Virus record (IMG/VR): IMGVR_UViG_3300046333_000120
Source: a virus
Reading direction: 5' to 3' (one strand)
DNA: 64,000 nt
A program made the translations under genes and the position numbers. The notes under the pieces were generated by a model, which was not told the origin of the DNA, made no database searches, and saw nothing but the letters and a program-made list of their open reading frames with translations. Below, one piece after another: positions 4,577 to 43,869 of the stretch (position 1 is its first letter; every line of letters starts with the position of its first letter).

Positions 4577-5659
4577 ATGAGCAATCCAAAGAAAACAAAA
4601 TCTATTTTAACATTAGTAGAAGAAGTTACTACACCTGGAATGATGCATAATAATTTATATTTGATACAAAGATTAGTTGATAAAGGAAAATTGAAAGATT
4701 ATCAAAGATTTATTATGCAATTTCCAAATGGACAATTGGCAGCAATGTTACTTAAATATTTTGAAAGCTTAACTGAAGATGATGTGGATGTATTAGTTGC
4801 CGCGATATATTCATTAGAAGATCCAACTCAATTATCTAATGTATATTACGCAGATAGAACCAACGTATGGGGTAGAATGTTTGATATGCAAGTTAGAGGA
4901 TCAGGAAAGGGAGAAGTAATAATTGCATGGCTAATAAAGGATGCATGTATACAGGGAGGTACAGAATCATTTGACGTATTAATTGGAGATAAAAAATATG
5001 AGGTTAAAGATTGGTCAAATCAAAAAAATTCATCAATATTAACCGGTGTAAAATCAAAGGTTTCTAATTTTGAATTTTGGAGAGAGATAGTAGATACAAT
5101 TAGAAGATTAGATAAATTAAGTGGATATTCAACTACACCTAAATTTAATTTTAAAAATTACTTCGATGATGGAGTATGCGATTTGGTAGATATTATTCTG
5201 GAAAGACAGCGCATGATACTATCAGGTGAATTCAATACAACAGATATTAAAAACTTTAAGAAATTCTATCAAAAGATAAATTCTATCAATAGTGAAATAT
5301 TAGGATATACCAATGTGATTTTTAGAGGACCTAATCAGATTCCAATAGAATTAAGTATTAATCCAATACAACTGAATGATATTTTAAATGAATCAATACT
5401 GGCACAAAGGTCAAGCGAAGATAACACCTTTATTTATATCTTAACAGAACTACGTAGATTAAAATATGTAAGAAATCCTGATGAATTATATAATGATATG
5501 CAATCTGCTGTAAATAAAATAGTGGAAGGAATTATGTATATTGTATATAGAGAAAATCAAATTAATATAACAAACGATTTTGTGCCACATGCAGTAAGCA
5601 TATCAAGCTTAAGATTTCTTGAAAAAAGCATAGCCAACCGACATATAATTGATATATAA
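4577..5659 (+). CDS. Hypothetical protein, possible PD-(D/E)xK nuclease fold
   Basis: GKGE...FDVLIGDKKYEVK. Confidence 0.4.
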   Translation: MSNPKKTKSILTLVEEVTTPGMMHNNLYLIQRLVDKGKLKDYQRFIMQFPNGQLAAMLLKYFESLTEDDVDVLVAAIYSLEDPTQLSNVYYADRTNVWGRMFDMQVRGSGKGEVIIAWLIKDACIQGGTESFDVLIGDKKYEVKDWSNQKNSSILTGVKSKVSNFEFWREIVDTIRRLDKLSGYSTTPKFNFKNYFDDGVCDLVDIILERQRMILSGEFNTTDIKNFKKFYQKINSINSEILGYTNVIFRGPNQIPIELSINPIQLNDILNESILAQRSSEDNTFIYILTELRRLKYVRNPDELYNDMQSAVNKIVEGIMYIVYRENQINITNDFVPHAVSISSLRFLEKSIANRHIIDI

Positions 5660-5843
5660 ATATAAATTATATGTAAGTATATGAATCAATCTGAATGGAA
5701 TACGTATATTGATACTGGATTTGTTCCTCAATATTTTATAAAGGAAATAGTTGATGGTATTAAAAATGGTAAGGATTTAAACATTAAACACCTACAGGTT
5801 TATATGACACATGGCAAAATAATAGAAATATATCTAAATAAAA

Positions 5844-6629
5844 ATGATGAAAAAAATTAAATTATTCGAGGAATTTCTTAATGAAGTTCGAGGAAAACAC
5901 AACACGGATCCAGAAGAAATAGTAGATGATATTAATTCTAGGGTTAATTTTGGTAGCGCTGCAATTAAGGACACTAAAGACGGGCCTTCAATTGTTATCT
6001 ATCTTGACAAAAAATCAGAAAGACATGGCGAAATTGTAAAGGAGCTTGAAAAAACATATAATGATGCTATCAAGTATATTCAAAGCAGTTCAAGTAAGGA
6101 TATTGTTGTGTTTAAAATTAATGAGGCATATGTTAATGAAGTTAAAATAGAAGATACTGAAATAACTGGAACTATTTCTGAATTTTATGAGCTGCAGATG
6201 CAAATTTTACAATTACAGTCTGAATTAAAGCAAAAACAGGCACAATTTAAACAATTCGATGCAAATATTCAGCCGATTATCGATGGTATGAAAGATACTG
6301 GAGATAAGTTAGGTGTAACTGAAAAATATGTGGTAAAAGTTTCGCGATTTGGATATGAAAGAACAACTGCATCATATAAAGATGCATTTGAATTAGCATT
6401 ATCGAAGGTCAATGGAGCCACTCAAAAAATATTAAATGAGGCTTTAGTCGCATCTGAAAAGGTTAGTGCAGTTTCGCATTCATACACGATAGACCAAATG
6501 AATGAGGCAAATATCTTTCAAAAAATAATGTCTACTATCAAAGATGTTGCATCTAAATTTGTTAGTATGTTTAAAAAGGAATCTAAAAACATTGATGCAG
6601 CAAATGACGATCTTAAAAAACTAGTATAA
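5844..6629 (+). CDS. Hypothetical protein with N-terminal MKKIKLFEEFLNE tag (putative internal head protein)
   Basis: Shared N-terminal motif; coiled coil. Confidence 0.55.
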   Translation: MMKKIKLFEEFLNEVRGKHNTDPEEIVDDINSRVNFGSAAIKDTKDGPSIVIYLDKKSERHGEIVKELEKTYNDAIKYIQSSSSKDIVVFKINEAYVNEVKIEDTEITGTISEFYELQMQILQLQSELKQKQAQFKQFDANIQPIIDGMKDTGDKLGVTEKYVVKVSRFGYERTTASYKDAFELALSKVNGATQKILNEALVASEKVSAVSHSYTIDQMNEANIFQKIMSTIKDVASKFVSMFKKESKNIDAANDDLKKLV

Positions 6630-7180
6630 TGAAAAAAATTAAACTATACGAAGAATTTATGAGTGATTTAGTAAATGAGAAGAAAACAACATACGATTAC
6701 GGTTGTGCAATGATATACTTTGAGTTTCCGGAAATGGAAAGCTTACATAAGCAAATAGACAAAGAAGATGTCTTTGTGGATCCTAATGATTCTACATTTG
6801 GATTAGAAACTGAACCACATTGTACTTTATTGTATGGATTACACGCTGATGTTGCAGTAAATACTATTAAAAAGATAGTAGATGGATTTGATTTTGGGGA
6901 ATGTACGATTGAAGGAGCTTCACTTTTTGAAAATGAAAAATTTGATGTACTTAAATTTGATGTAACTGGAAGTGGATTACATGATTGTAATGCTGCATTA
7001 GTAAAATTACCACACACTACTGATTATCCTAACTACCATCCTCACATGACAATAGCATACCTAAAAAATGGTATGGGTAAAAAGTATGTAGATTTATTAG
7101 GAACTGAAAAAAGAACCTTAAAACCATCCTATATAGTTTATAGTCAACCTGATGGTACTAAATCTAAAATAGATTTATAG
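6629..7180 (+). CDS. 2H phosphoesterase, Acb1/T4 gp57B-like, with MKKIKLYEEF tag
   Basis: Two HxT motifs: PHCTLLY and YHPHMTIAY. Confidence 0.8.
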   Translation: MKKIKLYEEFMSDLVNEKKTTYDYGCAMIYFEFPEMESLHKQIDKEDVFVDPNDSTFGLETEPHCTLLYGLHADVAVNTIKKIVDGFDFGECTIEGASLFENEKFDVLKFDVTGSGLHDCNAALVKLPHTTDYPNYHPHMTIAYLKNGMGKKYVDLLGTEKRTLKPSYIVYSQPDGTKSKIDL

Positions 7181-7205
7181 ATATATAAAATAAATAGAAA
7201 TTTCA

Positions 7206-8258
7206 ATGAAAAAAATAAAGTTATTTGAAGAATTTATAAGTGAATCTAAAGGATTAGAATTAGTACATGCATATGATAAAGATGGTACTATGTATGGTAC
7301 TGGAGAATTAATTAAAAAACAAGGTTCAAAATCTTTAATTAGATTTGATGGTGAAACTGAAAAATGGTTTGATAGTAAAGATGTTAAATTAGTAGAGTCT
7401 AATGAAATAGATGAAGCAACAACATCTTGGGCTAAAATGATGAAAGGTGTTAAAGATGGTGGTTCTGGACCATGGTCTTTAATTGCGATTGAAAATAATA
7501 AAGTAGTATCTCAGAAAATAGACATCAAAACTAAAGATATATTGCCTGCTCATTTCGAAGCATTGCGTAAAGAATACCCTAAAGCAAAGATTCATATTGA
7601 AGATGCAGGTGGTATCGTAGTTTGGAATGAAGCATTTAAACAATTCTTAATTGAATCAAAGGAAATGTTTCCAAATGAAATTATCGGAAACGATCAAATC
7701 CTCTTTAAGAAAGAATGGGAGAAAATGAATGGTGGCAAACTTGCTGCTAAATATAACCAATACTATAAAGGTTATGATATTGATTTTGGTGGCCATATAT
7801 TTAATACAGTTGATCAGTTAGAAAAGTACATTAAGGCTACAGAGCTTTCAAACAACCAATACCAAAAATATAAATATATGCCAGAAATTCCAATTAAAGA
7901 ATCTGTTGTAAATGAAGAAGAGGCGTATAAAGTAACTAAGAATACTTATAGAGATTATGATAGTTTAAATATTACACAATATGATAGTATTCAATTCAAA
8001 CAAGATGGTAAAAAATGGATAGTTAGAGTTGTTACTTGTCATGATAACGTAGATAAAAGTGCTCTTCAAAAACTAGGATTTGGCAATTCCGGAGATACTC
8101 GATATGGTGGAATTAGTACCTTTACTAAAAATGCTAATTGGCATGATTTAGAACTAAACAAAAAACAATTTGATGAATTGGTTAAAATAGTAGATGCTGG
8201 ATGGGCATCTCATGCCAAGGCTTTTGCTGATTTTTACAAAAATAGACAGGCAGATTAA
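7206..8258 (+). CDS. Modular hypothetical protein with MKKIKLFEEFISE tag
   Basis: Shared N-terminal motif; short modules separated by xxE linkers. Confidence 0.55.
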   Translation: MKKIKLFEEFISESKGLELVHAYDKDGTMYGTGELIKKQGSKSLIRFDGETEKWFDSKDVKLVESNEIDEATTSWAKMMKGVKDGGSGPWSLIAIENNKVVSQKIDIKTKDILPAHFEALRKEYPKAKIHIEDAGGIVVWNEAFKQFLIESKEMFPNEIIGNDQILFKKEWEKMNGGKLAAKYNQYYKGYDIDFGGHIFNTVDQLEKYIKATELSNNQYQKYKYMPEIPIKESVVNEEEAYKVTKNTYRDYDSLNITQYDSIQFKQDGKKWIVRVVTCHDNVDKSALQKLGFGNSGDTRYGGISTFTKNANWHDLELNKKQFDELVKIVDAGWASHAKAFADFYKNRQAD

Positions 8259-8260
8259 TC

Positions 8261-8548
8261 ATGAAACATATAAAACTATACGAAGACTTTGTTAACGAAG
8301 CATCGAATGGAGATAAATTAATTAAACATTTTACAGAAGAAACCGGAATTTCTCCATGGAATAAAGTAACTTTAAAAAGTGAATCTGGAACATGGACAGT
8401 ATCAAGAATTTGGTGTCCATCTGATAATGGAGGTATGAATCCTGGATTACACATTGAATTAACTAAAGGTAATTCTAGAGAACACTTTCAAGTTATGGAT
8501 GATAATGGAGCTTTAACAGAATTTGGTAAAGAAATCACAAAGAAATAA
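8261..8548 (+). CDS. Hypothetical protein with MKHIKLYEDFVNE tag
   Basis: Shared N-terminal motif. Confidence 0.55.
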   Translation: MKHIKLYEDFVNEASNGDKLIKHFTEETGISPWNKVTLKSESGTWTVSRIWCPSDNGGMNPGLHIELTKGNSREHFQVMDDNGALTEFGKEITKK

Positions 8549-8799
8549 TGAAAACAGTAAAACTATATGAAGAATTCATCAATGAAGAAGATACTAGAGA
8601 TACCCTTACTGAACTACGCGAAATGTCTTTAGGTCAACTTGAAAGAATCGCAGATTATGCAAATATGATTAAAGATCGTATGAATAAAGGAGAAACCCTA
8701 GAATCATGGATGTTTTCTCAATTAACAATATCTTTAGAAAACTTAAACGCAATCCATGATGCAATGGACGGTAATGATAAAAACCCAAACGATAATTAA
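8548..8799 (+). CDS. Hypothetical protein with MKTVKLYEEFINE tag
   Basis: Shared N-terminal motif. Confidence 0.55.
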   Translation: MKTVKLYEEFINEEDTRDTLTELREMSLGQLERIADYANMIKDRMNKGETLESWMFSQLTISLENLNAIHDAMDGNDKNPNDN

Positions 8800-8801
8800 C
8801 T

Positions 8802-9023
8802 ATGAAAAAAGTAATCTTAACAATTTTATTACTATCAACATTTGGATGTGCAACTATATTCCATAATGGACCAATTACAGAATATCAAAGAACCAAACCC
8901 TTAACAGGAGAAGCACCTAGAAAGATAAAGGTATTACCGCTAGTAGCAGATGTAATCCTATTCTGGCCAGCAACTATTGTAGATTTTGCTTCCGGAGCTA
9001 TCTATTTACCAAAAGAAAAATAA
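8802..9023 (+). CDS. Small predicted lipoprotein
   Basis: MKKVILTILLLSTFG-C lipobox; hydrophobic C-terminal segment. Confidence 0.65.
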   Translation: MKKVILTILLLSTFGCATIFHNGPITEYQRTKPLTGEAPRKIKVLPLVADVILFWPATIVDFASGAIYLPKEK

Positions 9024-9042
9024 GTAGATTACATATATAAGG

Positions 9043-9071
9043 AAAGGGACCCCCAACAAGGTCCCTTTTTT
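9043..9071 (+). terminator. Intrinsic terminator
   Basis: aaagggacc...ggtcccttttt. Confidence 0.75.
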
Positions 9072-9545
9072 AGCACCCCTAATCCTTCTGGCATGCCGCC
9101 ACAAATCCCAAATCCACCACATATAATTACAAATACTTAAGTCTTCTTAAACCCCCATGCAATCCCAAAATCATTGCTACCCCCAAGGTCCCGAGTCGAC
9201 GAAACCCCACCCCCCACCATACAATAAATAATAATCTAAATAAAGAAATAAACCAGAAGCTATAAGAACTAAATAACATACTAGATATAGATAATAAGAA
9301 AACAAGTATAAGTAATCCCGTTATCCCCCCAGTACCAGTTCTTTATATCCCCATACCCCTTATAACCCTGTAAGTATTAAAGATCTCTCAGCTCCTACAC
9401 CCGTACACGGGTAGAGGTCCCTAGGTCACCAGTTCAAGCATTCTTTATTTTAAAGGGATATATACGTGCACTCTAAGTCTCAAGGCCCCTAAGCCCTCTA
9501 ATGATATTAAGTAATATAGATATAAAGAAATCTATTAAATATAGA

Positions 9546-9700
9546 GTCCAAGGGTACCAAAGCAAAGTCCAAGGGTACCAAAGCAAAGTCCAAGGGTACC
9601 AAAGCAAAGTCCAAGGGTACCAAAGCAAAGTCCAAGGGTACCAAAGCAAAGTCCAAGGGTACCAAAGCAAAGTCCAAGGGTACCAAAGCAAAGTCCAAGG
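9546..9700. repeat. Perfect 21-bp tandem repeat GTCCAAGGGTACCAAAGCAAA, 7 copies plus 8 nt
   Basis: Units start at 9546, 9567, 9588, 9609, 9630, 9651, 9672, with a partial unit at 9693. Confidence 0.97.
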
Positions 9701-9897
9701 TCCCTACTTAAACCTCTCGCACAATTATCTCACCCCACGGGACCCCGCCGCCTGCATGCCGCCTACCCTCCGGACGCCAAAAAACCCCGCAAGCATGCTC
9801 TGTAGCACCGGCCAGCAGGGTGGCAAGGGTTTCATGGCTCTTCTGTGATTTTCTTAGAAAAGCCGACCAGACCCTAATTTGAAATTGTTAATAACTT

Positions 9898-10098
9898 TTA
9901 CGATTGTAGGTACACTGTATGCCAGGAGTCGAATCCCTCTGAGGTACTTGACCAGTCGAATCCAACTCGTAAAATATCTTTTAGGTTTTGGAATCGTGTT
10001 TGAGCTATATCTAGATCTTGTCTTAGATATTTTGCAATTTGCGTTCTTAGATCTGGTGCTACTGTATCTAGTATAGATTGGATAGTTTTAGTTTGCAT
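9898..10098 (-). CDS. Hypothetical protein
   Basis: 66-aa ORF with an A-rich leader, in an operon after 10105-10368. Confidence 0.6.
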   Translation of the reverse strand: MQTKTIQSILDTVAPDLRTQIAKYLRQDLDIAQTRFQNLKDILRVGFDWSSTSEGFDSWHTVYLQS

Positions 10099-10104
10099 GG
10101 TATA

Positions 10105-10368
10105 TTATTTAGGATTAGTTGAAAGGTTTGCACCTGCTAGGTATAGGTTTGTAATCATGAACATTAGGGGGTTTTTACCCTTTTTGCTTGATATACTGTT
10201 TTTCCATTTTGTTCGTGTCTCAGGGGAAGCATATGTATTGGTGCTTTCGATGATTTCCAAGAAGGTGCTGCGTAGTGCTTCTTCTGTAAGGGTTTGCATT
10301 TTACCGATTAGGCTTTCTACCTGTGCAGTAATTGAGCGTTCTGTAATTGATAAGTCGATGTGTGCCAT
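10105..10368 (-). CDS. Hypothetical protein
   Basis: ORF directly downstream of a class I promoter. Confidence 0.7.
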   Translation of the reverse strand: MAHIDLSITERSITAQVESLIGKMQTLTEEALRSTFLEIIESTNTYASPETRTKWKNSISSKKGKNPLMFMITNLYLAGANLSTNPK

Positions 10369-10377
10369 GGTGTTGTT

Positions 10378-10400
10378 GTTTTAATTATAATGTAAATATA
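10378..10400 (-). promoter_or_regulatory. Class I (host-sigma-like early) promoter TA(G/T)ATTTACATTATAATTAAAAC
   Basis: Conserved ~23-mer with 8 copies in the window; resembles the Bacteroidota TAnnTTTG -7 element. Confidence 0.75.
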
Positions 10401-10542
10401 ACTATAATATTTGAACCATGAAAATTTATTTGCAATTATTTTTAAAAAGATTATGGGAACACTGACCAGTAGAGAAACCAATAGGGTCACGAAGAAACAC
10501 CACATAACTTCAATGACCCTAGGGGGTTATAATTAAAACGGG

Positions 10543-11652
10543 TTATAGTTCCACAACTTGAGTTTTTAATTCTTCTGGTATGCTGTCCTTGTCAAAACCA
10601 AATAGTTTATCGAATGAATTTGATTCGTTATCTAGGGATTTGCGTTCTTCGGCTAGGATATCATCGTTGAAAAGGTCTCTGGCATATCTGGCTTCGTCGA
10701 ATGTTACTCCTCCATTTAGGTCAAAGAATAGTTTTTTGTTTACATCACCACCTCGATTCTTAGAGAATTCCATATAGCGACGGCCAGAATTTTCATTACC
10801 TTCCCAGTCAAGGTGCATCATTGCAGTTGCCATGTGTTTTAGTTTATTAGAACCAACAAATACTCCACCTTTAGATAATTGTAAAATCGTTACAAATGTA
10901 GTATGTTTAGATAGGATGTTATTTGCCTTGTTGTGATTGTCCATTAGATCTAGGAACCATTTCTCGGTTTTACCACGGGTCATTCCGCAAGCTTCTTTGA
11001 CTGTGTCATTTACTTCTGTGTAGGAATCGGTTAAGATAACGTCCCATCCTTGTGCAACTACTGATTCGATTACTGATTTTGGGCAATCTTCTGTGTAGTC
11101 TCCTAAGAATAGGATTGGTAATTGTCCCCAGTGAGGAAAACGTTTTAGGTAACGAGCCATATCGATTTGATTCATTTCTGCTGAGATGAATAGGACCTTC
11201 TTGCCACCTGCTTGTAACTTAGATAATAGTTCAAGTAGCACTGTAGTTTTACCTATACCAGGGGCTCCTGCTGCCATGACGTTAGTGCCTGGTAGGAAAC
11301 CACCTTCAGATGATACGAATTTATCGAATACAGTATCTGTAGCTAATGGAACAAAAAGACTTTCATCTATATTTAGGTCATCTAATTTGGTTAGAGTAAT
11401 TGGTCCAACGGCTTTAGATACTTTAGGTTCTTGTACTTGTTTAGGTTGTATACCTCCACCATATGCATTATGATAATCTTTAGAAGAATTAAAGTGACCT
11501 TGCTCGTTTATATTAACAAGTCTATTAGATTCTAATCCTTGAATCCATTCGTATTTAGGGTGATCCTCCTTGATTACTACGGTATGATCTTGGTCAATAG
11601 CGCGAAGTTCGAAGATGTCATTTAATTTGTGGAATGTGTAAGATACTTTCAT
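10543..11652 (-). CDS. RadA/Sms-like RecA-superfamily ATPase
   Basis: Walker A GAPGIGKTT, LFISAEM, ILTDS, GSNKLKH, FSKNRGG. Confidence 0.75.
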   Translation of the reverse strand: MKVSYTFHKLNDIFELRAIDQDHTVVIKEDHPKYEWIQGLESNRLVNINEQGHFNSSKDYHNAYGGGIQPKQVQEPKVSKAVGPITLTKLDDLNIDESLFVPLATDTVFDKFVSSEGGFLPGTNVMAAGAPGIGKTTVLLELLSKLQAGGKKVLFISAEMNQIDMARYLKRFPHWGQLPILFLGDYTEDCPKSVIESVVAQGWDVILTDSYTEVNDTVKEACGMTRGKTEKWFLDLMDNHNKANNILSKHTTFVTILQLSKGGVFVGSNKLKHMATAMMHLDWEGNENSGRRYMEFSKNRGGDVNKKLFFDLNGGVTFDEARYARDLFNDDILAEERKSLDNESNSFDKLFGFDKDSIPEELKTQVVEL

Positions 11653-11660
11653 AATGTGGT

Positions 11661-11683
11661 GTTTTAATTATAATGTAAATCTA
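11661..11683 (-). promoter_or_regulatory. Class I promoter
   Basis: Exact copy of the conserved motif. Confidence 0.75.
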
Positions 11684-11742
11684 ACTATTATTTGTGATAC
11701 ATGAAAACTTTTGGGATATTATTTTCAAGAAGTTATTAACAA

Positions 11743-11958
11743 TTACTTTTTGTATTTTGTGTATAACATCTGAATCATCCAACATAAGGCTGCACCATTC
11801 AAGATGATAATAAGAGCATTTTCAGGTTGAGTTAGTATATAGTGCAATATGTTACATGATGCTAAGATAACACTTGAAACTATTAGGTATGCTAGCGCAC
11901 TGAATGCCATGAATCCTACTAAACCAAGAGTTGCCATTTTTAAAGATCTACGTGTCAT
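11743..11958 (-). CDS. Small membrane protein
   Basis: Two hydrophobic segments; class I promoter at 11968-11990. Confidence 0.6.
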   Translation of the reverse strand: MTRRSLKMATLGLVGFMAFSALAYLIVSSVILASCNILHYILTQPENALIIILNGAALCWMIQMLYTKYKK

Positions 11959-12050
11959 AATTTGTTTGTTTTTAATTATAAGTAAATCTAATCAATATTG
12001 GTGATATATGAAAATTTAAAGTGTTAAAACTTTGTTAAAATTTAAGAAGT

Positions 12051-12075
12051 AAAAAGACCCCCATATAGGGGGTCT
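12051..12075 (-). terminator. Intrinsic terminator (minus strand)
   Basis: Minus strand reads agaccccc-tatat-gggggtcttttt. Confidence 0.75.
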
Positions 12076-12136
12076 GAAATGGATTTAAAACCTGAGTCTT
12101 CTGCTGTCTAGAATTTATGCTGCTCTGTTTATAATC

Positions 12137-13276
12137 CTAGTTTAATAATGAACCTGTTCGAACTAATTCTCTACCACCAAAGATATCTGGCATTGTGTTC
12201 TCGTGGTCAAATGATTTTTTACCGAATAGGTTACCAGATTTAACCATCAAATCTGATGCATTATAATCTTGCATATTAGTATCTATAATACCAGCTGCAT
12301 GCGTTGCGAAGTGAGTTACACCATTAACAACATCCCATACAGAAGTATTTGATTTTGCATGTTTTAATTGATCTGTACTTAATGTATCAAATCCTGCTTT
12401 GTAAAAAGCATTCATGTTTTCTGCTAGAGGCAACCAGTTATCTGAACGTTCACCTGCGAATGGAGAAATAAGATTATGTGCAAATTGTAATTCATGTAAA
12501 GATGCAGGTGTGTTATGTGCTGCTCTTACACGTTCTGCAAATCCAGTAGGTGCAAAGTTATTTTTACGTAATTCATTTAAGTTTTCAAAGAATTTCTCCA
12601 TTGAACCCTGATCTAATGAATTAAGAGTATATGATTCTTGAGCAAATGCAGTGGTCATTCCATTAGTACACCATTGACGATTAACATATGGAAGAACTTG
12701 GAAACCATCTTTAGGTGAATTTTGAAAAGTAACACCACCTGTAAATACCTCATCGCTTAAACCTTTAACTGCGAAGTTTGCATTAGGGTTAAATGCATTG
12801 ATAGTTACAATACCTGTTCCTGGATCTACTGACCAATTGGAAACACTCATTCCGTTATTATCTATAATATTTTCAGCAACTCCCATAAATTGGGAATTTG
12901 AAATACCGAATTGATCTTTCTTAGTGATAGCAACAACATACTTGGTAAGTGGGTTAAGTACCAATGTTACTTCTGAAAGTTTACCACTATTAGAAGACAT
13001 TGCATTTTTCATTGTATTAATGAATTGTGATTTAGCTTCTTTAGTAAATAGGGTTTCGAATTTCTGTGCGAATGCTTGTGACATTCCTAATAGGCCAAGT
13101 AAATTTTTAAATGCTGATTTCGTAACAGCTATACGGGATCCATTATATTCAATAGTTTCAGCGTCAATAATATTGATATCACGGAAATGTACAACTTTAC
13201 GTAGATTCTGTGCTTCTAACGTATTTACTTTTTTACGATCGATAACTTGACTTGATAATGTTTGAATTGTTGCCAT
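12137..13276 (-). CDS. DUF932-like protein
   Basis: RQWCTNGM and SVWDVVNGVTHFATH motifs typical of DUF932. Confidence 0.65.
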   Translation of the reverse strand: MATIQTLSSQVIDRKKVNTLEAQNLRKVVHFRDINIIDAETIEYNGSRIAVTKSAFKNLLGLLGMSQAFAQKFETLFTKEAKSQFINTMKNAMSSNSGKLSEVTLVLNPLTKYVVAITKKDQFGISNSQFMGVAENIIDNNGMSVSNWSVDPGTGIVTINAFNPNANFAVKGLSDEVFTGGVTFQNSPKDGFQVLPYVNRQWCTNGMTTAFAQESYTLNSLDQGSMEKFFENLNELRKNNFAPTGFAERVRAAHNTPASLHELQFAHNLISPFAGERSDNWLPLAENMNAFYKAGFDTLSTDQLKHAKSNTSVWDVVNGVTHFATHAAGIIDTNMQDYNASDLMVKSGNLFGKKSFDHENTMPDIFGGRELVRTGSLLN

Positions 13277-13328
13277 AATTGTTTTTGTTTATATTTATAT
13301 GATTAATAAAAAAAATGTTTCAGTATTA

Positions 13329-13451
13329 TTAAGAATTAATTGCTTTACATACCCATGATTGAGATACTTTAAGTCTATCAGCAATAATAGATGTAGTTAA
13401 GTTATCATTGAAGAATAAGTCCTTTGCGATTTGTGTTTTTGTAAGTTTCAT
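13329..13451 (-). CDS. 40-aa helix-turn-helix protein (not in ORF track)
   Basis: MKLTKTQIAKDLFFNDNLTTSIIADRLKVSQSWVCKAINS; directly behind the class I promoter at 13461-13483. Confidence 0.7.
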   Translation of the reverse strand: MKLTKTQIAKDLFFNDNLTTSIIADRLKVSQSWVCKAINS

Positions 13452-13599
13452 AATTTGTTTGTTTTAATTATAATGTAAATCTAACTATAATAGATGATCC
13501 GTGAAAACTTTTTTACAACTATTTTCAAAAAAAGTTGTTAACACTCCTTTGTTAATAACTTTATGGCGGGTTGATTCATTATGTCGCGGAAATTGATTA

Positions 13600-13740
13600 A
13601 TTTTATATGATGCCCCTTGGTTAGGGAATATTTTAACATTTATGTATGGGGGAGTCTACTCTTCCCCCTAGCAAGGATAGGGACGCCCATGTCGAATCTT
13701 CCGATTCTTCGTCTTTCGACCCGTTATGTCATTTTGTTAT
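13600..13740 (-). ncRNA. Candidate structured small RNA
   Basis: Follows a TATATTTG promoter-like site at ~13751-13758; only a 7-aa ORF; two GNRA-capped hairpins and a GC-rich stem. Confidence 0.35.
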
Positions 13741-13870
13741 TTTCCATATACAAATATAACTATAATACTTGAAATAAAAAAACATTGGCCTAATTATTTT
13801 CAATAAGATATGAACATTGAATTGTTAATAACTTTGTCCTATTATATTTTCACGGATCACAGAAAATGAT

Positions 13871-13893
13871 TAGATTTACATTATAATTAAAAC
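13871..13893 (+). promoter_or_regulatory. Class I promoter
   Basis: tagatttacattataattaaaac. Confidence 0.75.
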
Positions 13894-13902
13894 AAACAAA
13901 TT

Positions 13903-14361
13903 ATGACAAATTTAGTAAACACCACAAGCATCAACACCGTAAACTATTTAAAAGATTATAGTACAGGTAAATTTAGATTTATTGCAAAATGTAGAGCAGG
14001 TTTTATGACAGTATCAGATGCAAGAGAATTTGACAATGCACATTATATCCAATATCCTGAATCGTTATTAACTGCATATAAGAAAGGTGCTATCCAAACT
14101 ATTGAATTCTGCCCAGATGGAGGTGAATATTACTTAACAGTATTTGCAAAGAAAGGAAACAAAATAGTTCTAATAGATGAAACTATCTTGGCAAATCTAA
14201 CAGTAGGAACAATTAATCAGTTATGGTCTAATACTAACCTATACAATCAATCACAATATACCGCAGTCAACGCCAAAACATGGGCAGATTTGGCATATGT
14301 TCGTAAAGATGCTACAGTAACTGATTCCAATAGAGAACCCGTTATCCTAGAGAACCTCTAA
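13903..14361 (+). CDS. Hypothetical protein
   Basis: ORF behind a class I promoter. Confidence 0.7.
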   Translation: MTNLVNTTSINTVNYLKDYSTGKFRFIAKCRAGFMTVSDAREFDNAHYIQYPESLLTAYKKGAIQTIEFCPDGGEYYLTVFAKKGNKIVLIDETILANLTVGTINQLWSNTNLYNQSQYTAVNAKTWADLAYVRKDATVTDSNREPVILENL

Positions 14362-14397
14362 TATATAGATTATAAACTAACATTAAAATATTTAACT

Positions 14398-14532
14398 ATG
14401 GCAGCGAATACCTTACAAACATCTAAAGAGCTTCAACAACAAATCCTAAAAACAAAAACCGAAGAGCCTCATAACTACAAAAAGATTCAAAGGTTACAAC
14501 AGTTATTGGATAAAATCGCAACTGACAAATAA
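14398..14532 (+). CDS. 44-aa hypothetical protein (not in ORF track)
   Basis: MAANTLQTSKELQQQILK...IATDK*; TAATG overlap with the next gene. Confidence 0.55.
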   Translation: MAANTLQTSKELQQQILKTKTEEPHNYKKIQRLQQLLDKIATDK

Positions 14533-15221
14533 TGAAGTATACTGGGGTAAATTTCTCACTGGCAGATAAAATAAATTCTGCTAAAACACAGACTACTGCT
14601 AGGAATAACACATCAGATGTTCCTGCTAGGGTTAATCCATCTCCAGGCGATCCATCTATGTCAGTAGATACTTCTAATATAGATAATGCAGGCACAAATA
14701 TCAGTCAACAGCAAAATACAGCAACAGATACAACCTCGCCGGCCAAATCCCGTGAAGTAGCTAATAAAGCAAAGGACTTAGAATATCAAAAGCCACTAGA
14801 TGCAACATATCCACGAGAAGCTGATCCTGGCAAAGTTATTCCAACACCTAAATCTAAAGGATTTGCCCAAAGACTACTAGATGCACAAATGGCTAATAAC
14901 CTAATAGATACTAATAGACCTCAGCCAAATACTAGAACTGCAGAATATCCTAAAGAACAGGGTACCAATATTAACAAACCTCAACCCGAGGATAATACGC
15001 CCACAAGACCTAACCCAGGAGTATTTGACCCAAGTGGTATAAGTACTATAAACCCTAAAGGTCCCTCAGGGGACCTTCTAGGGAACATCCCTGGAGGCGC
15101 TCCTGGGACAACCCCTGAGGGCTCCCTAGGGCCTTTATATACCGCTCCTGGTCAATATAAGGCACCTAACACCCCTAAGGGATTTACCGCCCCTAAGCTT
15201 AACTTACCTAAATTCAAATAA
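14532..15221 (+). CDS. Pro/Asn/Thr-rich, probably disordered hypothetical protein
   Basis: Low-complexity composition; translationally coupled start. Confidence 0.6.
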   Translation: MKYTGVNFSLADKINSAKTQTTARNNTSDVPARVNPSPGDPSMSVDTSNIDNAGTNISQQQNTATDTTSPAKSREVANKAKDLEYQKPLDATYPREADPGKVIPTPKSKGFAQRLLDAQMANNLIDTNRPQPNTRTAEYPKEQGTNINKPQPEDNTPTRPNPGVFDPSGISTINPKGPSGDLLGNIPGGAPGTTPEGSLGPLYTAPGQYKAPNTPKGFTAPKLNLPKFK

Positions 15222-15229
15222 TAGACCCA

Positions 15230-15380
15230 TAGGCCTACACGACCCTATGCACTATAGACCTTATAGGGTACCCTAGAGGCAACAGTAGGCGCCTACGGAC
15301 CCTAGGGCCTTCTAGCACCGGATAGGGCAATATAGCCAGTTTGCCACCTACACCCACTACAAGCCTATAGGCCATATGGC
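15230..15380. repeat. Cluster of perfect 8-12 bp palindromes
   Basis: TAGGCCTA 15230, TAGGGTACCCTA 15264, GTAGGCGCCTAC 15285, CCCTAGGG 15300, GCCTATAGGC 15363, GCCATATGGC 15371. Confidence 0.9.
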
Positions 15381-16480
15381 ACATGGTGGTGAGCGTAGAG
15401 CGCATAGAGAGTATAGAGTACATAGAGAGTATAGAGCCAAAGGCACAATCGAAGACTTTGAAGTTGAAAGCGCAAATTGACTAGGATTTTAAGGGTTGAG
15501 AGTAAGAGATGCATAGGTTTCTATTCATCTACTAATAATTAGCAATATAGCGATCGACCTTCCTATAAGTCTACCAATAGTCTCAGTCCAGAGATCCTGT
15601 CACCTCAACCCATGCAGGCCTCAGTGTCTCTCTAAGGTCATCAAATCCCTTGAGAATGTGTCAACATACCCTCAGACGTTTCTCCATCTTACACACCCCT
15701 AGAAAAGTCAAAGTACCCGGATGAAAAAAATACCCCGGGGGAAATGGCCGGCCACTTACGTACATTGGAAGAAACTATAAGAACTATAAGTACTAAAACA
15801 ACACAGATATTGCCACAGATATTGACCTCTAGTGTACCTCAGAGTAAATGTGAAAAATATTATAAAAAAGTTTCACAGATTCTGAAACAAACGGGAGTAC
15901 TGGCAATATAACTTAAGTCTTTAAGCCTGAGGGAAGACCAAGAGGACAGATTGCAGGTTCTTTGAGGTCTCATAGTACTGGAGAGATTTTAAGGTCTCAC
16001 TTAATATAGAGTCTCCATTTAAAAAATACACCCTAAAAATAGGTGACTACCAGAATGAGGCGGAGGGTGGTTGTTGTTGTAAGGACTAATAGTATTTAAA
16101 ATAAATCAAAATCCTGTTATTAGTATAAGACTATAATTAATAAAGAACGATATTTATATAGATCTAGATATACTAGTAAGTAATCACATAAATATGGAAA
16201 ATTATTTAAAGTATCATTACAATGTGGCAAGTACGGGTGTCGTTGCAAGGTGGCCTGGATATTTTGGGGAATTACCCCTGAGGAACATGTTATTTCTCCG
16301 GGGGTTCTGAGGCCAGGGCCCCTATTATTATAGAAAAAAATGAGTTTTTTGATGTTGATAAATTAAATTTTCCCACACCTATTAAAGATGGAAGATCTAT
16401 GAGAAATAACTTGGAAATTATCTAAAAAAAATAGATGAAACAAATACTAATAAGCTAATATAAATTACAAATAATCTAAT

Positions 16481-16838: not shown

Positions 16839-18809
16839 ATGTCTAAGAAAACAAATACACCTTTCATTGATCAGTTCGGAGAAGATTTAACTAAAATGGC
16901 AAGCGAGGGCAAATTAGATCCTATTATTGGTAGGGAAAAGGAAGTTTATCGTATATGTCAAATTCTTTCAAGGAGAAAGAAGAATAATCCAATTATTTTA
17001 GGAGATCCTGGTGTTGGTAAAACTGCATTAGTAGAAGCAATTGCACAGCGAATTGTAAATAAGCAGGTTGCAATGACTCTTCTTAATAAGAGAATTGTTT
17101 CACTTAATATTTCAAATATAGTTGCGGGAACGAAATATCGTGGTGAATTTGAGGAACGCATGAAAAACATAGTAGATGAATTAAAAGAAAATAGAGATGT
17201 TATTGTCTTTATTGATGAAATTCATACTATTGTTGGTGCAGGGGGAGTTAGTGGATCTTTAGATGCTAGTAATATATTAAAACCAGCATTAGCAAGAGGA
17301 CAAGTACAATGTATAGGTGCTACAACATTGGATGAGTATAGAGAAAATATTGAAAAGGATGGTGCACTTACCCGAAGATTTCAAGAAGTTTTCATAGATC
17401 CACCATCAATTGAAGATACTATTGAAATTCTTAATAGAATTAAACCTAATTATGAAGATTATCATGCAGTATCATATAGTGATGATGCAATCAAAGCATG
17501 TGTTACTTTATCAGAAAGATATATTACACAAAGAGAATTGCCAGATAAAGCAATTGACATAATGGATGAGGCAGGTGCAAAGGTACATTTAAAGGAAGTT
17601 AAAATGCCAGAGAGTATTAAAGAACTTGAAATTGAGGCTGAAACATATAAAGCATCTAAATTAGTTGCTGTTGAACAACAGGACTATGAGAAGGCTGGTA
17701 AATTTAGAGATTTAGAATTAGCAAAGAAAGAAGAAATCCAAAATTCAACGAAAGAATGGGAAATTTCTTTACGTGATAATAAAAAACAGGTAACATACGA
17801 AGATATTGCTGAAACTATTTCGCAAACAACTGGAATTCCAATTACAAGAATGACTGATGATGAAAATAGAATCATTGTTGAAATGGAAAAGGAATTAAAA
17901 TCCATGATTATTGGACAAGATCTTGCAGTTGAAGGACTTTGTAGAGTTATTAAAAGAAGTAGAACTGGAGTAAGTTCATCTAAAAAACCAATCGGATCAT
18001 TCATGTTTATTGGACCTACTGGAGTTGGTAAAACAGAAACAGTTAAAGCTTTAACAGAATATTATTTTGGAAGTGAAGATGCATTGATTAGGATTGATAT
18101 GTCTGAATATCAAGAAAAATTTAATGTTAGTAGACTTATTGGTTCTCCTCCAGGATATGTTGGATATGAAGAAGGTGGTCAATTAACAGAACAGGTTCGT
18201 CGTAAACCATATTCTGTTGTATTATTTGATGAAGTTGAAAAAGCCCATCCAGATATTTTTAATACTTTATTGCAAGTATTAGATGAAGGTAGATTAACTG
18301 ATACTTCAGGTAGAATTATTGATTTTACAAATACTATCATTATTATGACTTCAAATATTGGAGCAAAACGTGTTGCTGAATTTGGTGCAGGAATTGGATT
18401 TAATAGTACAACGTCATCTGCTTCATATAAAATGGAAATGGAAACAGTTATTAGAAAAGAACTTAAAAATAAGTTTGCTCCTGAATTTTTAAATAGGTTA
18501 GACGATATTGTTTTATTTGATGGATTAAAACAAGAACATGTACTACAAATAGCCGATATTGAAATTAATAAAGTAATTGAAAGAATGGCTGCATTAGAAT
18601 ATTCGATTAAACTTGCAAAAACTGCAATGATTTTTTTAGCAGAAAAAGGATATGATTCACAATATGGTGCTAGACCATTAAAAAGAGCTGTACAATCATA
18701 TGTTGAAGATTTATTGGCAGATTCTATCATTACAGGCCAAGTCGTTAAAGGTTCTAAAGTATATACCATCTCACATAAAAAAGGAGATGAGAAACTTTCT
18801 ATAAAGTAA
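16839..18809 (+). CDS. clpC: ClpC-type AAA+ unfoldase lacking the N-terminal domain
   Basis: Two Walker A motifs (GDPGVGKT, GPTGVGKT), short UVR-type M-domain AVEQQDYEKAGKFRD, GIGF ClpP-docking loop; starts just before LDPIIGR. Confidence 0.9.
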   Translation: MSKKTNTPFIDQFGEDLTKMASEGKLDPIIGREKEVYRICQILSRRKKNNPIILGDPGVGKTALVEAIAQRIVNKQVAMTLLNKRIVSLNISNIVAGTKYRGEFEERMKNIVDELKENRDVIVFIDEIHTIVGAGGVSGSLDASNILKPALARGQVQCIGATTLDEYRENIEKDGALTRRFQEVFIDPPSIEDTIEILNRIKPNYEDYHAVSYSDDAIKACVTLSERYITQRELPDKAIDIMDEAGAKVHLKEVKMPESIKELEIEAETYKASKLVAVEQQDYEKAGKFRDLELAKKEEIQNSTKEWEISLRDNKKQVTYEDIAETISQTTGIPITRMTDDENRIIVEMEKELKSMIIGQDLAVEGLCRVIKRSRTGVSSSKKPIGSFMFIGPTGVGKTETVKALTEYYFGSEDALIRIDMSEYQEKFNVSRLIGSPPGYVGYEEGGQLTEQVRRKPYSVVLFDEVEKAHPDIFNTLLQVLDEGRLTDTSGRIIDFTNTIIIMTSNIGAKRVAEFGAGIGFNSTTSSASYKMEMETVIRKELKNKFAPEFLNRLDDIVLFDGLKQEHVLQIADIEINKVIERMAALEYSIKLAKTAMIFLAEKGYDSQYGARPLKRAVQSYVEDLLADSIITGQVVKGSKVYTISHKKGDEKLSIK

Positions 18810-19997: not shown

Positions 19998-20675
19998 ATG
20001 AATTACGGAAAAGAATTTGAAAAATACGCGATGAGCGACCATGGAATTAGTTCTATTAATATGCACTATGCTAAAAAACAATTAGAAAATGCATTGACTC
20101 CTTATATTTTAGAGGAGAGAGAATTACGAGCAACCCAGATGGATATTTTTTCAAGATTAATGATGGATAGATTATTATGGGTAGCAGGTCCTGTGAATGA
20201 CAATATGTCTACTATAGTACAGGCTCAATTAATGTTCTTAGATTCTTCGGATGATAGGGATATTACAATGCATATTGATTCAGGAGGAGGAAGTGTAAAA
20301 TCCGGACTTTCGATGGTTGACGTTATGGAATATATTAAATCTGATATACGTACAGTCAACACGGGAATAGCAGCCTCTATGGGTTCTGTTTTATTAGGAG
20401 CAGGAACTAAGGGTAAGAGAAGTTCTTTAAGGCACTCTACCGCTATGTTACATCAATCTTCAGGAGGATTTAGTGGAAATATTCAAGATGCTGAAATCGA
20501 TTGGGCAGAATGGCAAAAAGTTAACAAAGAATTATTTACTCTTTTAGGAAAATATTGTGGTAAAAAGCCTGAGCAGGTTATGAAAGATGCTACTAGGGAT
20601 TTATGGTTGAATGCAGAAGAAGCGTTAAAGTATGGAATTATAGATGAGATTATAATATCAAAAAAAATAATATAA
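19998..20675 (+). CDS. clpP: ATP-dependent Clp protease proteolytic subunit
   Basis: DIFSRLMMDR, AASMGS (Ser), LHQ (His), RDLWL (Asp). Confidence 0.95.
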   Translation: MNYGKEFEKYAMSDHGISSINMHYAKKQLENALTPYILEERELRATQMDIFSRLMMDRLLWVAGPVNDNMSTIVQAQLMFLDSSDDRDITMHIDSGGGSVKSGLSMVDVMEYIKSDIRTVNTGIAASMGSVLLGAGTKGKRSSLRHSTAMLHQSSGGFSGNIQDAEIDWAEWQKVNKELFTLLGKYCGKKPEQVMKDATRDLWLNAEEALKYGIIDEIIISKKII

Positions 20676-25519: not shown

Positions 25520-26716
25520 ATGAAAATAGGAATCACCATCGGTCTGACAAAGGAAAATGAATCACTTTGGATTAATGGAATTAAACTAAATGCATTATAT
25601 TTAGCAAACACTCTATTAAATATAGGAGAACATGATGTGTGGATTTTAGACACATCTGATAAAGTCGAAGATCTTACTAAAGTGCAATGGGACACTACTA
25701 AATTCCCAATATATAAATTTAAAGAAAAATTTAAAGAAATAGATTTACTTATAACATTAGGTACATCAATACCTGAAAATTGGTCTAATGCAATAAAAAC
25801 TGCAAATCCAAATGCTAAAATAGTAAAGTACCAATGTGGTAATAACTATGTGGTAGATATGGAAAGAGTTTTATTTGGAGATCCAGATGCAGAAGGGATT
25901 CCATCTTGGGATAAAGGACATGATGCAACATGGACAATACCCCAACAAGAATATCACAATAAAGAATATTTTCAATTAATATATAGACAAAATCCAGAGG
26001 ATGTTAAAATAGTTCCATTTGTATGGGATCCTATGTTTATTGATAGAAATAGTGAAACGCTTAAATCGCTTGGCAAAAAACATCCACAGTACATACCTAA
26101 ACCGGCTTCCGAAAAGAAAATTTCAGTAATGGAACCAAATTTAAATGTGGTAAAATATGCACTTATACCTATAATGATTACTGAGGCTTTTTTTAGAAAA
26201 CTTGGAGAAAATTCATTTAAACAATTATATGTAGGAAGTGGTAATAAATTATTAAAAAATAAATATTTTCTGGGAATGATTAAAAACCTAGATATAGTAA
26301 ATAGAAAAAATCCACTTATTAAATTTGTGCCAAGGTATCCAGTAACTACATTCCTTGCAGAGGAAACTGATATAGTATTAGCACACCAATGGGGAAATCC
26401 ATTAAATTATTCATATTTAGATGCTATTCATTTTGGGTACCCAGTAGTACATAATGCAGATTTTATAAAAGATGCTGGATATTATTATAAGGACTTTTCA
26501 ATATTCGGAGGAATGGAACAATTAGATCTTGCAATAAATCAACATGACAATAAAATAGAGGAATACAAAGAAAGGAATAAAAAAGTATTAGATAGATACC
26601 TATCAACTAATCCTGATGTTGTAGATACATATAGAAAATTAATAGAGAATTTATGGGATCCTAATAAACATAAATTATCATACAAATATAACTGGAAAAC
26701 AAATACATATAAATAA
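25520..26716 (+). CDS. DUF2827-family protein (glycosyltransferase-like)
   Basis: MKIGITI...WINGI, MEPNLNVVK, HQWGNPLNYSY. Confidence 0.7.
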   Translation: MKIGITIGLTKENESLWINGIKLNALYLANTLLNIGEHDVWILDTSDKVEDLTKVQWDTTKFPIYKFKEKFKEIDLLITLGTSIPENWSNAIKTANPNAKIVKYQCGNNYVVDMERVLFGDPDAEGIPSWDKGHDATWTIPQQEYHNKEYFQLIYRQNPEDVKIVPFVWDPMFIDRNSETLKSLGKKHPQYIPKPASEKKISVMEPNLNVVKYALIPIMITEAFFRKLGENSFKQLYVGSGNKLLKNKYFLGMIKNLDIVNRKNPLIKFVPRYPVTTFLAEETDIVLAHQWGNPLNYSYLDAIHFGYPVVHNADFIKDAGYYYKDFSIFGGMEQLDLAINQHDNKIEEYKERNKKVLDRYLSTNPDVVDTYRKLIENLWDPNKHKLSYKYNWKTNTYK

Positions 26717-28990: not shown

Positions 28991-30625
28991 ATGTCAATTA
29001 CACCGTACATTTCTACCTCGGGTCCACAGGGGTTTAAAGGTTTTCAAGGTTTTCAAGGTATTATCGGCGATCAAGGAGGAACTGGTTCGCAGGGATATCA
29101 AGGTCAAATAGGTATGCAAGGAGACCAAGGTTTTCAAGGTCTTAAAGGAGATCAAGGAGAATTAGGATTTCAAGGAATAAGTGGAACCAGTATAACTGGA
29201 GCACAAGGTTTCCAAGGTAATCAAGGTTTCCAAGGTAATCAAGGTCTTAAAGGAGATCAAGGTATTGTAGGTACAACTGGTAATACTGGAGCACAGGGTA
29301 ATCAAGGTTTCCAAGGTAATCAAGGTTTTAAAGGAGATCAAGGTTTCCAAGGTAATCAAGGTCTTAAAGGAGATCAAGGTATTATAGGTACAACTGGAGC
29401 ACAAGGTAATCAAGGTTTCAAAGGAGATCAAGGTTTCCAAGGTAATCAAGGTATTGTAGGTACACCTGGAGCACAAGGTATTGTAGGTACAACTGGTAAT
29501 ACTGGAGCACAGGGTAATCAAGGTTTCCAAGGTATTGTAGGTACAACTGGAGCACAGGGTTTCCAAGGTAATCAAGGTATTGTAGGTACAACTGGTAATA
29601 CTGGAGCACAAGGTTTCCAAGGTAATCAAGGTCTTAAAGGAGATCAAGGTATTGTAGGTACAACTGGAGCACAAGGTTTCCAAGGTAATCAAGGTATTGT
29701 AGGTACAACTGGAGCACAAGGTTTCCAAGGTAATCAAGGTATTGTAGGTACAACTGGAGCACAAGGTTTCCAAGGTAATCAAGGAACAACTGGAGCACAA
29801 GGTTCTGTTGGATCTCAAGGTTCAGTTGGAGCACAAGGTGCAACTGGTTCTACGTCGTACACAGCAGGAACCGCAAACTTTTTAAATACAAACACGCAAT
29901 TAACATACGGCGCAAGTGGTTTAAATTATTTTAATTTAGCAAGTGCCGCAGGATCTAATCCTGCATTAAATCAAACGCCTACAAACGACTGGTACCATAT
30001 CACACGATACAACCATGCAAACTCAGCGGGTTATTATGCAGATTTAGCAATTGGTATGACAACTGCAGGTACTGAAATGTGGGTAAGAAGAATTTCAGGC
30101 GGAAGTGGAACTGCATGGACAAGAATGATAGACACTAATAATATAGGATCTCAGTCTGTAAATTATGCATCTACTATAGGAATTAATTATAACAACGATT
30201 CCGCTTCAACGTATCAAATGTTATGGGGTTCTGGAAACTCTGTATATGGTACTGCAGGAATTTACTGTAACCCATCAACCGATACTCTATATTGTACAGG
30301 TGATGTTATTGCAGCAGCTGCCTCTGATAGAAGATTAAAGGATAATATTAAACCTATTGAAAATCCTTTAATTAAAATATCTAAAATTGGAGGTTATACA
30401 TTTGATTGGAATGATAAACAAGAAGTTTATACCGGAAATGACATTGGAGTTATTGCACAAGAAATTGAAGAAGTGCTTCCACAACTAGTAGAAACTAGAA
30501 AAAATGGATATAAGGCAGTTAAATATGATAAGATTGTTGCATTATTAATAGAAGGTATAAAAGAACAACAAAAACAGATCGATGTATTAACATCAGAAAT
30601 CGAAATATTAAAAATAAATAAATAA
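28991..30625 (+). CDS. Collagen-like tail fibre with C-terminal S74-like chaperone
   Basis: Long G-X-Y region (GFQGNQ, GIVGTT, GLKGDQ); SDRRLKDNI...GVIAQEIE. Confidence 0.88.
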   Translation: MSITPYISTSGPQGFKGFQGFQGIIGDQGGTGSQGYQGQIGMQGDQGFQGLKGDQGELGFQGISGTSITGAQGFQGNQGFQGNQGLKGDQGIVGTTGNTGAQGNQGFQGNQGFKGDQGFQGNQGLKGDQGIIGTTGAQGNQGFKGDQGFQGNQGIVGTPGAQGIVGTTGNTGAQGNQGFQGIVGTTGAQGFQGNQGIVGTTGNTGAQGFQGNQGLKGDQGIVGTTGAQGFQGNQGIVGTTGAQGFQGNQGIVGTTGAQGFQGNQGTTGAQGSVGSQGSVGAQGATGSTSYTAGTANFLNTNTQLTYGASGLNYFNLASAAGSNPALNQTPTNDWYHITRYNHANSAGYYADLAIGMTTAGTEMWVRRISGGSGTAWTRMIDTNNIGSQSVNYASTIGINYNNDSASTYQMLWGSGNSVYGTAGIYCNPSTDTLYCTGDVIAAAASDRRLKDNIKPIENPLIKISKIGGYTFDWNDKQEVYTGNDIGVIAQEIEEVLPQLVETRKNGYKAVKYDKIVALLIEGIKEQQKQIDVLTSEIEILKINK

Positions 30626-43411: not shown

Positions 43412-43869
43412 TGAAGTACATTAAGTTATTCGAAGAATTTTCAATCAATCAAATAACATGTGATACCTGTAAATGGAAATGGAGACTTGAAGATGGCGGA
43501 GATGATATGTATATTTGCCATAAATGCGGACATAATAACACGCCAATTCTTGGAGAATCATATATTCTTAAAGAACTTGAACCTAAATTCAATGTTATAT
43601 TAGATTTATATGATAATGGTAAATTCTTAGAATTAACTAGAATTGTTATTCCTAAAGAGGATAGAGGAAATGGAGTAGGTTCTGAGGTTATGGATAAAAT
43701 CAATGAGTATGCAGATCAAAAGGGTCTTAAAATATATTTGACTCCATCTAAAGATTTTGGTGCAACTTCAACCTCACGATTAGAAAAGTTTTACAAACAA
43801 CATGGGTTTATAAAGAATATTGATAAAAGCGAAACACGAAACACAATGGTACGTTTTCCTAGGAAATGA
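43411..43869 (+). CDS. GNAT acetyltransferase with N-terminal tag and Zn-ribbon
   Basis: MKYIKLFEEF; CxxC..CxxC; RGNGVGS acetyl-CoA motif; FYKQHGF. Confidence 0.75.
   Translation: MKYIKLFEEFSINQITCDTCKWKWRLEDGGDDMYICHKCGHNNTPILGESYILKELEPKFNVILDLYDNGKFLELTRIVIPKEDRGNGVGSEVMDKINEYADQKGLKIYLTPSKDFGATSTSRLEKFYKQHGFIKNIDKSETRNTMVRFPRK

Follow-up and report, generated by a model that had tools for sequence, protein, structure and literature searches.

In bacteriophage T4, the internal proteins IPII and IPIII begin with the same capsid-targeting sequence (CTS), MKTYQEFIAE (read from NC_000866, and named in the preliminary description of the DNA analysed here), in which residues 4 and 7 serve targeting and residues 8 and 10 serve processing; the T4 protease gp21 cleaves after L/I-x-E (PMC9026906). 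In the hypervariable internal-protein loci of T-even phages, the CTS alone is conserved (cited in PMC3012670 and PMC9026906). Other phages have related solutions: among the anti-restriction Dar proteins of phage P1, DarB carries an N-terminal packaging signal (PMC9024508), and giant phages such as SPN3US and phiKZ have propeptide-bearing ejection or inner-body proteins (PMC5694885, PMC7411985). Reviews have already suggested that T4-like phages load varied proteins via such leaders (PMC9026906). Here we describe a 13-residue tag, M-K-x-[IV]-K-L-[FY]-E-E-F-[ILV]-N-E, carried by proteins encoded in a 64,000-nucleotide stretch (hereafter the window) of the IMG/VR virus record IMGVR_UViG_3300046333_000120. 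With moderate confidence, we consider it to be a lineage-specific capsid-targeting sequence of the T4 type, whose cargo would be co-assembled and then cut free in the head.

The tag shares with the T4 CTS its nature as an N-terminal leader of 10–19 residues on unrelated proteins, the succession of an aromatic residue, a Phe three residues on, an aliphatic residue, any residue and Glu, and an end that fits the L/I-x-E site of gp21-type proteases; moreover, the phage clade that carries it has T4-type portal, capsid and protease genes. It differs from the T4 leader in being three residues longer (MKxIKL...), in its presence on ~7% of the genes (nine in the window and ~24 in a complete relative, G001, versus 3–4 in T4), in a cargo that is acidic to neutral and includes enzymes, in the fusion of the clade's protease to a scaffold, and in being known from genes alone. 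The tagged genes resemble the T-even internal-protein loci in forming tandem, fast-changing arrays that share only the leader and have a proposed arms-race role against host defences. However, the scale is far larger, the hosts belong to another group (probably Bacteroidota), and the cargo comprises 2H phosphoesterase, Tad3, GNAT and kinases. As in DarB, whose N-terminal signal is enough for a reporter or a counter-defence protein to enter the head, a leader would direct the cargo, but the Dar proteins have no consensus signal, P1 is not T4-like and there is no sequence likeness to the tag. In SPN3US and phiKZ many head-internal proteins are likewise processed after Glu by the prohead protease and ejected into the host, but their propeptides are long and varied and no single portable short tag has been defined. 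We found no paper describing the present tag (a full-text motif search gave no match) and, on the large-scale use of capsid-targeting leaders, only work on T4, P1 and SPN3US. Compared with the known concept, the novelty lies in the scale, in the group of phages concerned, in a cargo of enzymes and anti-defence proteins, in the swapping of leaders over a fixed protease junction and in the likeness between leader and scaffold repeats.

A portable N-terminal tag on unrelated proteins

The preliminary description had reported nine proteins sharing the motif, five of them encoded by consecutive genes, and had suggested a wider motif scan. We scanned the window in six frames for the strict motif M-K-x-[IV]-K-L-[FY]-E-[ED]-F, together with a listing of the N-termini of its open reading frames (ORFs), and recovered seven sites (5847, 6629, 7206, 8261, 8548, 43244 and 43411). 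The motif is thus real but does not occur in nine equal copies, since the remaining two, at 44225 (MANIKSFEAFVNE) and 56547 (MNKLKTYSQFLNE), are weak, divergent versions. Five strict copies do start consecutive genes between 5844 and 8799 (called starts 5844, 6629, 7206, 8261 and 8548); six of the seven are N-terminal, and the seventh (43244) lies at residue 120 of ORF 42887–43411. The tag-bearing ORFs are as follows, with a slash at the junction that ends the tag.

5844–6629, + strand: tagged gene 1, 261 aa; true start probably at 5847, giving MKKIKLFEEFLNE/VRG (the called start at 5844 gives MMKK...); body without assigned function
6629–7180, + strand: tagged gene 2, 183 aa; an Acb1-like or LigT-like 2H phosphoesterase body, in which both HxT motifs are present, follows the tag and LVNE
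7206–8258, + strand: tagged gene 3, 350 aa; a second junction, I-D-E/ATTSW, ~70 residues in
8261–8548, + strand: tagged gene 4, 95 aa; MKHIKLYEDFVNE/A; 83% identity to a tagged gene of G001
8548–8799, + strand: tagged gene 5, 83 aa; MKTVKLYEEFINE/E
42887–43411, + strand: ORF with an internal tag; untagged 'DTYNDYP' domain, tag at 43244–43282 (MKHVKLFEEFLEE), then 'GLWDNVWAKRKRG' domain
43411–43869, + strand: tagged zinc-ribbon plus GNAT acetyltransferase, 152 aa; tag without [ILV]-x-E at positions 11–13
44225–44701, + strand: divergent tag, MANIKSFEAFVNE/M; very acidic protein whose G001 orthologue has a 51-aa segment in common with the scaffold
56547–57350, + strand: divergent tag, MNKLKTYSQFLNE/S; conserved 267-aa protein inside the baseplate gene block

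A back-translated degenerate pattern covering the first ten residues, ATGAARNNNRTHAARYTNTWYGARGARTTY, matched six times in the window and not once in 100 dinucleotide-preserving shuffles searched with the same pattern. The tag copies use differing codons at synonymous sites and the DNA upstream of them is unconserved; the variation at synonymous sites indicates that selection acts on the peptide. This largely disposes of the weakest alternative, a shared start that has no peptide function and serves as a DNA-level recombination linker or translation-initiation signal: although the tagged genes form tandem arrays whose domains are shuffled, and A-rich second codons are common in AT-rich phages, freely varying synonymous sites, unconserved upstream DNA and conservation at the amino-acid level, positions 11–13 included, led us to reject it as very improbable. 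Once the tag was removed, the nine bodies showed no significant similarity to one another, in agreement with the earlier statement that the sequences behind the motif are unrelated. Taken together, the tag is a module defined at the peptide level, N-terminal and portable between unrelated proteins.

In one relative, the tag is joined straight to the ATTSW that follows the second junction of gene 3. On a near-identical Joint Genome Institute contig (L154:2578-3598), the 350-aa gene 3 is called as two, of 248 and 104 aa, so that the population may include a variant with a frameshift or a stop. ORF 42887–43411 looks like a fusion of two cassettes in the order domain A, tag, domain B; its relatives show the orders tag-B-A, tag-A and tag-A-GNAT, and in G001 domain A is untagged. 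Internal tag copies found in the database search described below lie, as in this ORF, at junctions of fused cassettes, and their Met is kept. The gene directly after the tagged array (8802–9023) is untagged and has a lipoprotein-type signal at its start (MKKVILTILLLSTFGC).

The window, which belongs to an uncultured giant phage of the T4-like kind, has ~30% G+C, with nearly all genes on one strand; among the products are baseplate proteins with matches to wedge and hub families of the T4 type. Distant relatives exist among huge uncultured phages and phages of Flavobacteriia. A megablast search of the tagged region against cultured phages gave no match, and the one internal tag match in the cultured phage MA9V-2 was judged to be due to chance. 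The tag pattern occurred in at least 120 stretches of viral contigs, in almost all of which the motif starts an ORF (the tag-bearing contigs shorter than 120 kb are fragments rated ~30% complete). A tag profile searched against 1.84 billion representative proteins retrieved at least 162 clusters at E ≤ 0.001, a figure that is a minimum given the shortness of the motif; the tag begins at residue 1 in 139 of the best 150 matches. G001, a contig of 256,444 bp that carries terminal repeats and is classed as complete, is syntenic with the window and matches 71 of its ORFs in order with 25–83% identity. When its proteins were scored with a tag matrix, 22 N-termini exceeded 13 bits and four more were borderline, including MTYAEFIAE, compared with 10.2 bits for the best of 67,419 internal positions. 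In all, ~24 of its ~330 genes are tagged, 14 of the first 21 found lying in one tandem array. No 'beads-on-a-string' polyprotein with repeated ES-V-x-NE linkers was found in G001.

Likeness to the T4 leader and to the prohead scaffold

To see how the tag is built, we compared 120 distinct ORFs of viral contigs that carry it, with positions 11–13 outside the search pattern. Position 11 was I, V or L in 68% of them, position 12 was N in 43% and position 13 was E in 70%, and nothing was conserved past position 13. An [ILVM]-x-E triplet ended exactly at position 13 in 64% of the ORFs, versus ~2% at control positions. Residues F/Y7, F10, I/L/V11 and E13 align, with the same spacing, with the four functional residues of the T4 leader; in the window, the copy at 43411 has neither of the last two (11 and 13). 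Forms between the tag and the T4 leader also exist: MKTIKDFITE, found on homologues of the 2H enzyme, and MTYAEFIAE, the start of a G001 protein (855–1283, L128) and almost identical to MKTYQEFIAE. When the tagged 2H phosphoesterase of G001, the orthologue of that in the window, was modelled with AlphaFold2, residues 1–14 had a predicted local distance difference test score (pLDDT) below 50 and the body one above 90, so that the model depicts the tag as an appendage outside the fold.

The 2H phosphoesterase of gene 6629–7180 has 1,154 homologues, of which we compared the best 119, from different lineages. The body starts at the same conserved point throughout this set, and at least eight leader classes precede it.

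Leader classes 1–4: MKxIKLFEEFxNE; MKxIKDYxxWLFES; MIKLxDLLxE; MKLxxxLxE
Leader classes 5–8: MIKxFxQFVNE; MKTIKDFITE; MxKxFKxFxxFLxE; ...KRMQxLAGIxxE

Except for a single leaderless protein, all these homologues (118 of 119) have a leader ending in [ILVM]-x-E, whose Glu stands 3–4 residues ahead of the body in 106 cases. Leaders that change while the protease-type junction stays fixed are to be expected of a head-targeting propeptide that is cleaved, and are not predicted by the alternatives discussed below. One of the other leaders, MIKLxDLL[KN]E, is portable too, occurring in at least 120 stretches of viral contigs with 119 of 126 copies N-terminal. The same cargo families carry it, and the phages concerned, T4-like and 160–195 kb in size, all have an unfused S77 protease. 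The scaffold start of four of five such phages, M..[DNQ]L[FY]K[ED]AIADAK, is similar to their leader, just as the start of T4 gp22 (MLKEQLIAEA) resembles the T4 leader.

The head genes of G001 and other relatives offer a second line of comparison. G001 encodes a T4-type portal (Pfam Portal_T4, 8.5e-68), a T4-type major capsid protein (Pfam Gp23, 3.8e-43) and an S77 (gp21-type) prohead protease domain that starts a 604-aa protein. Both catalytic motifs of T4 gp21 have aligned counterparts in this protein, ELDHP for His and ISSRA for Ser, which are invariant in 38 homologues, and S77 was present in 10 of 10 tag-bearing contigs of at least 120 kb. In this clade (G001 51569–53383; L124:103-1914) the protease is fused to a ~440-residue tail with 14-residue-periodic Y-x-x-[YH]-[ILV]-A-E repeats and an acidic segment, features that make it look like a protease–scaffold fusion; public data contain more than 3,700 members of this family. 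Five of five large contigs encode a small, acidic, tagged protein between portal and protease, the place taken in T4 by the core proteins gp67 and gp68. In addition, the G001 orthologue of the protein encoded at 44225 shares 51 residues with the scaffold part of the fusion (61% identity, E 4e-12). The core of the tag, [FYW]xx[FYW][ILVM]xE, is present at 24 N-termini in G001; this pattern, composed after the repeats had been seen, occurs six times in the scaffold part versus 12 times in all the other 71,481 residues of G001 (P ~1e-9), or eight versus nine times if His is allowed at the second aromatic position. Each of the 38 protease–scaffold homologues contains 6–9 such units.

Cargo, proposed mechanism and alternative explanations

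The cargo of the window comprises the 2H phosphoesterase, the zinc-ribbon–GNAT protein and seven proteins without assigned function. For the first, the general 2H family PF13563 scored above its cut-off (32.5 bits) and the Acb1 family PF23474 below (23.1 bits, cut-off 27); both HxT motifs are invariant, and the predicted structure matches many 2H enzymes, Acb1 among them, with template modelling (TM) scores of 0.45–0.6. Among 112 tagged ORFs from relatives, we recognized 11 Acb1/2H proteins, three GNAT, three ATP-grasp and three Tad3 proteins (best 4.8e-22, above cut-off), one Zeta-toxin-like kinase and one ankyrin protein. The phage probably pre-packs a varied protein cargo that would include likely anti-immunity enzymes.

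The tagged genes also share a promoter-like motif, [AG]ATATATA[AG], which is strongly strand-biased (28 sense versus 2 antisense copies in the window, 54 versus 1 in G001), intergenic and usually located 10–40 nt ahead of a start codon. In the window it stands ahead of all five tagged units, listed below, and of baseplate genes; the G001 genes that it precedes include those for sheath, capsid, protease–scaffold and portal.

5651–5659, + strand: promoter-like motif GATATATAA, heading unit 5681–7180
7180–7188, + strand: promoter-like motif GATATATAA, heading unit 7206–9023
42875–42883, + strand: promoter-like motif GATATATAG, heading 42887–44183
44184–44192, + strand: promoter-like motif GATATATAA, heading 44225
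56535–56543, + strand: promoter-like motif AATATATAA, heading 56547

These data can be arranged in a model. Tagged proteins would be made together with the structural proteins, and the amphipathic tag would join the prohead scaffold core via its aromatic residues 7 and 10, the core consisting, in this clade, of the long C-terminal extension of the S77 protease and of small acidic core proteins. The prohead protease would then cut after Glu13, at [ILV]-x-E, leaving the cargo free inside the head. At infection the cargo would exit with the DNA and act at once, a step less well supported than the earlier ones. The injected proteins would in part serve counter-defence (the 2H phosphoesterase/Acb1-like enzyme and GNAT here, Tad3 and the Zeta-like kinase in relatives). 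The preliminary description had called the motif a portable packaging tag for proteins loaded into the head and injected with the DNA, an interpretation that our data support in part; every feature that we computed fits a T4-type leader, and packaging into the head, cleavage of the tag and injection are the steps that we infer from this fit.

Several observations weigh against a T4-type leader. About 30% of all tags have no Glu13, and the window tag at 43411 has no site at positions 11–13. Mature window cargo is acidic to neutral (isoelectric points of 4.2–8.3), whereas the T4 internal proteins are basic, and [ILVM]-x-E is so weakly depleted in the cargo bodies (observed/expected ratios of 1.01–1.07 versus 1.15, p = 0.034) that we did not use it as support. 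Thirteen residues are too few to establish that the tag and the T4 leader descend from a common ancestor. The tag is absent from the cultured relatives Tenacibaculum phage PTm1 and Flavobacterium phage MaF61, and we found no cultured phage that has it. The head module of the window phage itself lies outside the 64-kb window, and the association of the tag with S77 may merely reflect the shared ancestry of the clade. A class-specific position-specific scoring matrix of the tag did not single out the scaffold repeats, which only the looser core pattern did; together with the post hoc origin of that pattern, this makes the scaffold likeness a good lead, not proof. Finally, the promoter-like motif also precedes some non-structural genes, so that it shows shared regulation and not strictly late timing.

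The alternative that survives best keeps the first half of the model: the tag would target the prohead and be cut, but the cargo would consist of internal head or scaffold parts, or of zymogens activated in the head, and not of injected effectors. Two tagged proteins do look like core or scaffold components, namely the acidic protein encoded between portal and protease and the G001 orthologue of 44225 with its 51 scaffold-like residues. T4 provides a precedent, since gp67, gp68 and part of the core remain in the head or are degraded there (PMC9026906). However, many cargo bodies belong to anti-immunity or host-takeover families (Acb1-like, Tad3, GNAT, Zeta-like kinase, ankyrin) that have no obvious use inside a capsid, and we regard this explanation as unlikely.

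A second possibility is that the tag has no link to the capsid and acts as a degron or adaptor site for a phage ClpC-like unfoldase and ClpP, giving its bearers a limited lifetime or a controlled unfolding. Clp systems include N-terminal degrons. The window encodes a two-ring ClpA/B/C-type AAA+ protein (16839–18809; AAA_2 4e-71, ClpB_D2-small) and a ClpP (19998–20675; 6e-56), so the tag could be such a site, and both are conserved in G001. ClpP was found in five of the ten large tag-bearing contigs, a co-occurrence that does not separate the explanations because the other five are incomplete. However, a degron predicts neither the [ILV]-x-E end nor the same junction under at least eight leaders, neither the likeness to the T4 leader and the scaffold repeats nor a tagged gene in the head module, and T4 employs such a tag without any Clp of its own. 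A degron or adaptor role thus appears improbable. A thymidylate synthase gene sits between the ClpC-like and ClpP genes.

It is equally hard to credit that the tag is a general interaction or localization helix whose likeness to the T4 leader is due to chance and whose partner lies elsewhere, for example in the membrane, in the replication machinery or among host targets. The motif is indeed short and amphipathic, and similar strings arise in ordinary proteins, for instance at the start of a DNA ligase in locus L153 (MLQDLQQFVNES). Nevertheless, the head is indicated by the strictly N-terminal location of the tag, by the way in which it stops abruptly at Glu13, by its likeness to the scaffold and by the tagged member of the head module.

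Neighbouring genes and significance of the tag

Just past the tagged array, a gene-poor stretch of higher G+C contains, at 9545–9700, 7.4 perfect tandem copies of a 21-bp unit (AGTCCAAGGGTACCAAAGCAA), a repeat that could be an iteron or origin-like element. The region 8000–16000 as a whole has a higher G+C (0.36) and a flat GC skew, and contains two of the few minus-strand genes of the window (10543–11652 and 12137–13276), both conserved in G001. Elsewhere, the window encodes a DUF2827 protein (25520–26716), a collagen-repeat protein ending in an S74 intramolecular chaperone domain (28991–30625), which is probably a tail fibre, a family-2 glycosyltransferase (32120–33955) and a UvdE UV-damage endonuclease (41967–42887).

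Taken at its widest, and only tentatively, a T4-type targeting role for the tag would mean that giant T4-like phages of an abundant and uncultured clade use short, lineage-matched leaders, mimics of their own scaffold repeats, to bring dozens of interchangeable proteins into the capsid. Counter-defence enzymes and sponges of known anti-immunity families (Acb1-like phosphodiesterase, Tad3) might then arrive with the DNA before phage expression, and cargo might move between lineages by leader swapping. If the tag works as in T4, head loading would be a large-scale, modular means of delivery in widespread environmental giant phages, well beyond the T-even coliphages. Its presence would also give a simple sequence rule to predict virion-delivered proteins from metagenomes, and anti-defence proteins that degrade or sequester signals may come ready-made with the infecting particle. 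Finally, the likeness between leader and scaffold repeats offers a testable idea of how capsid-targeting leaders are recognized, in T4 as well as here.

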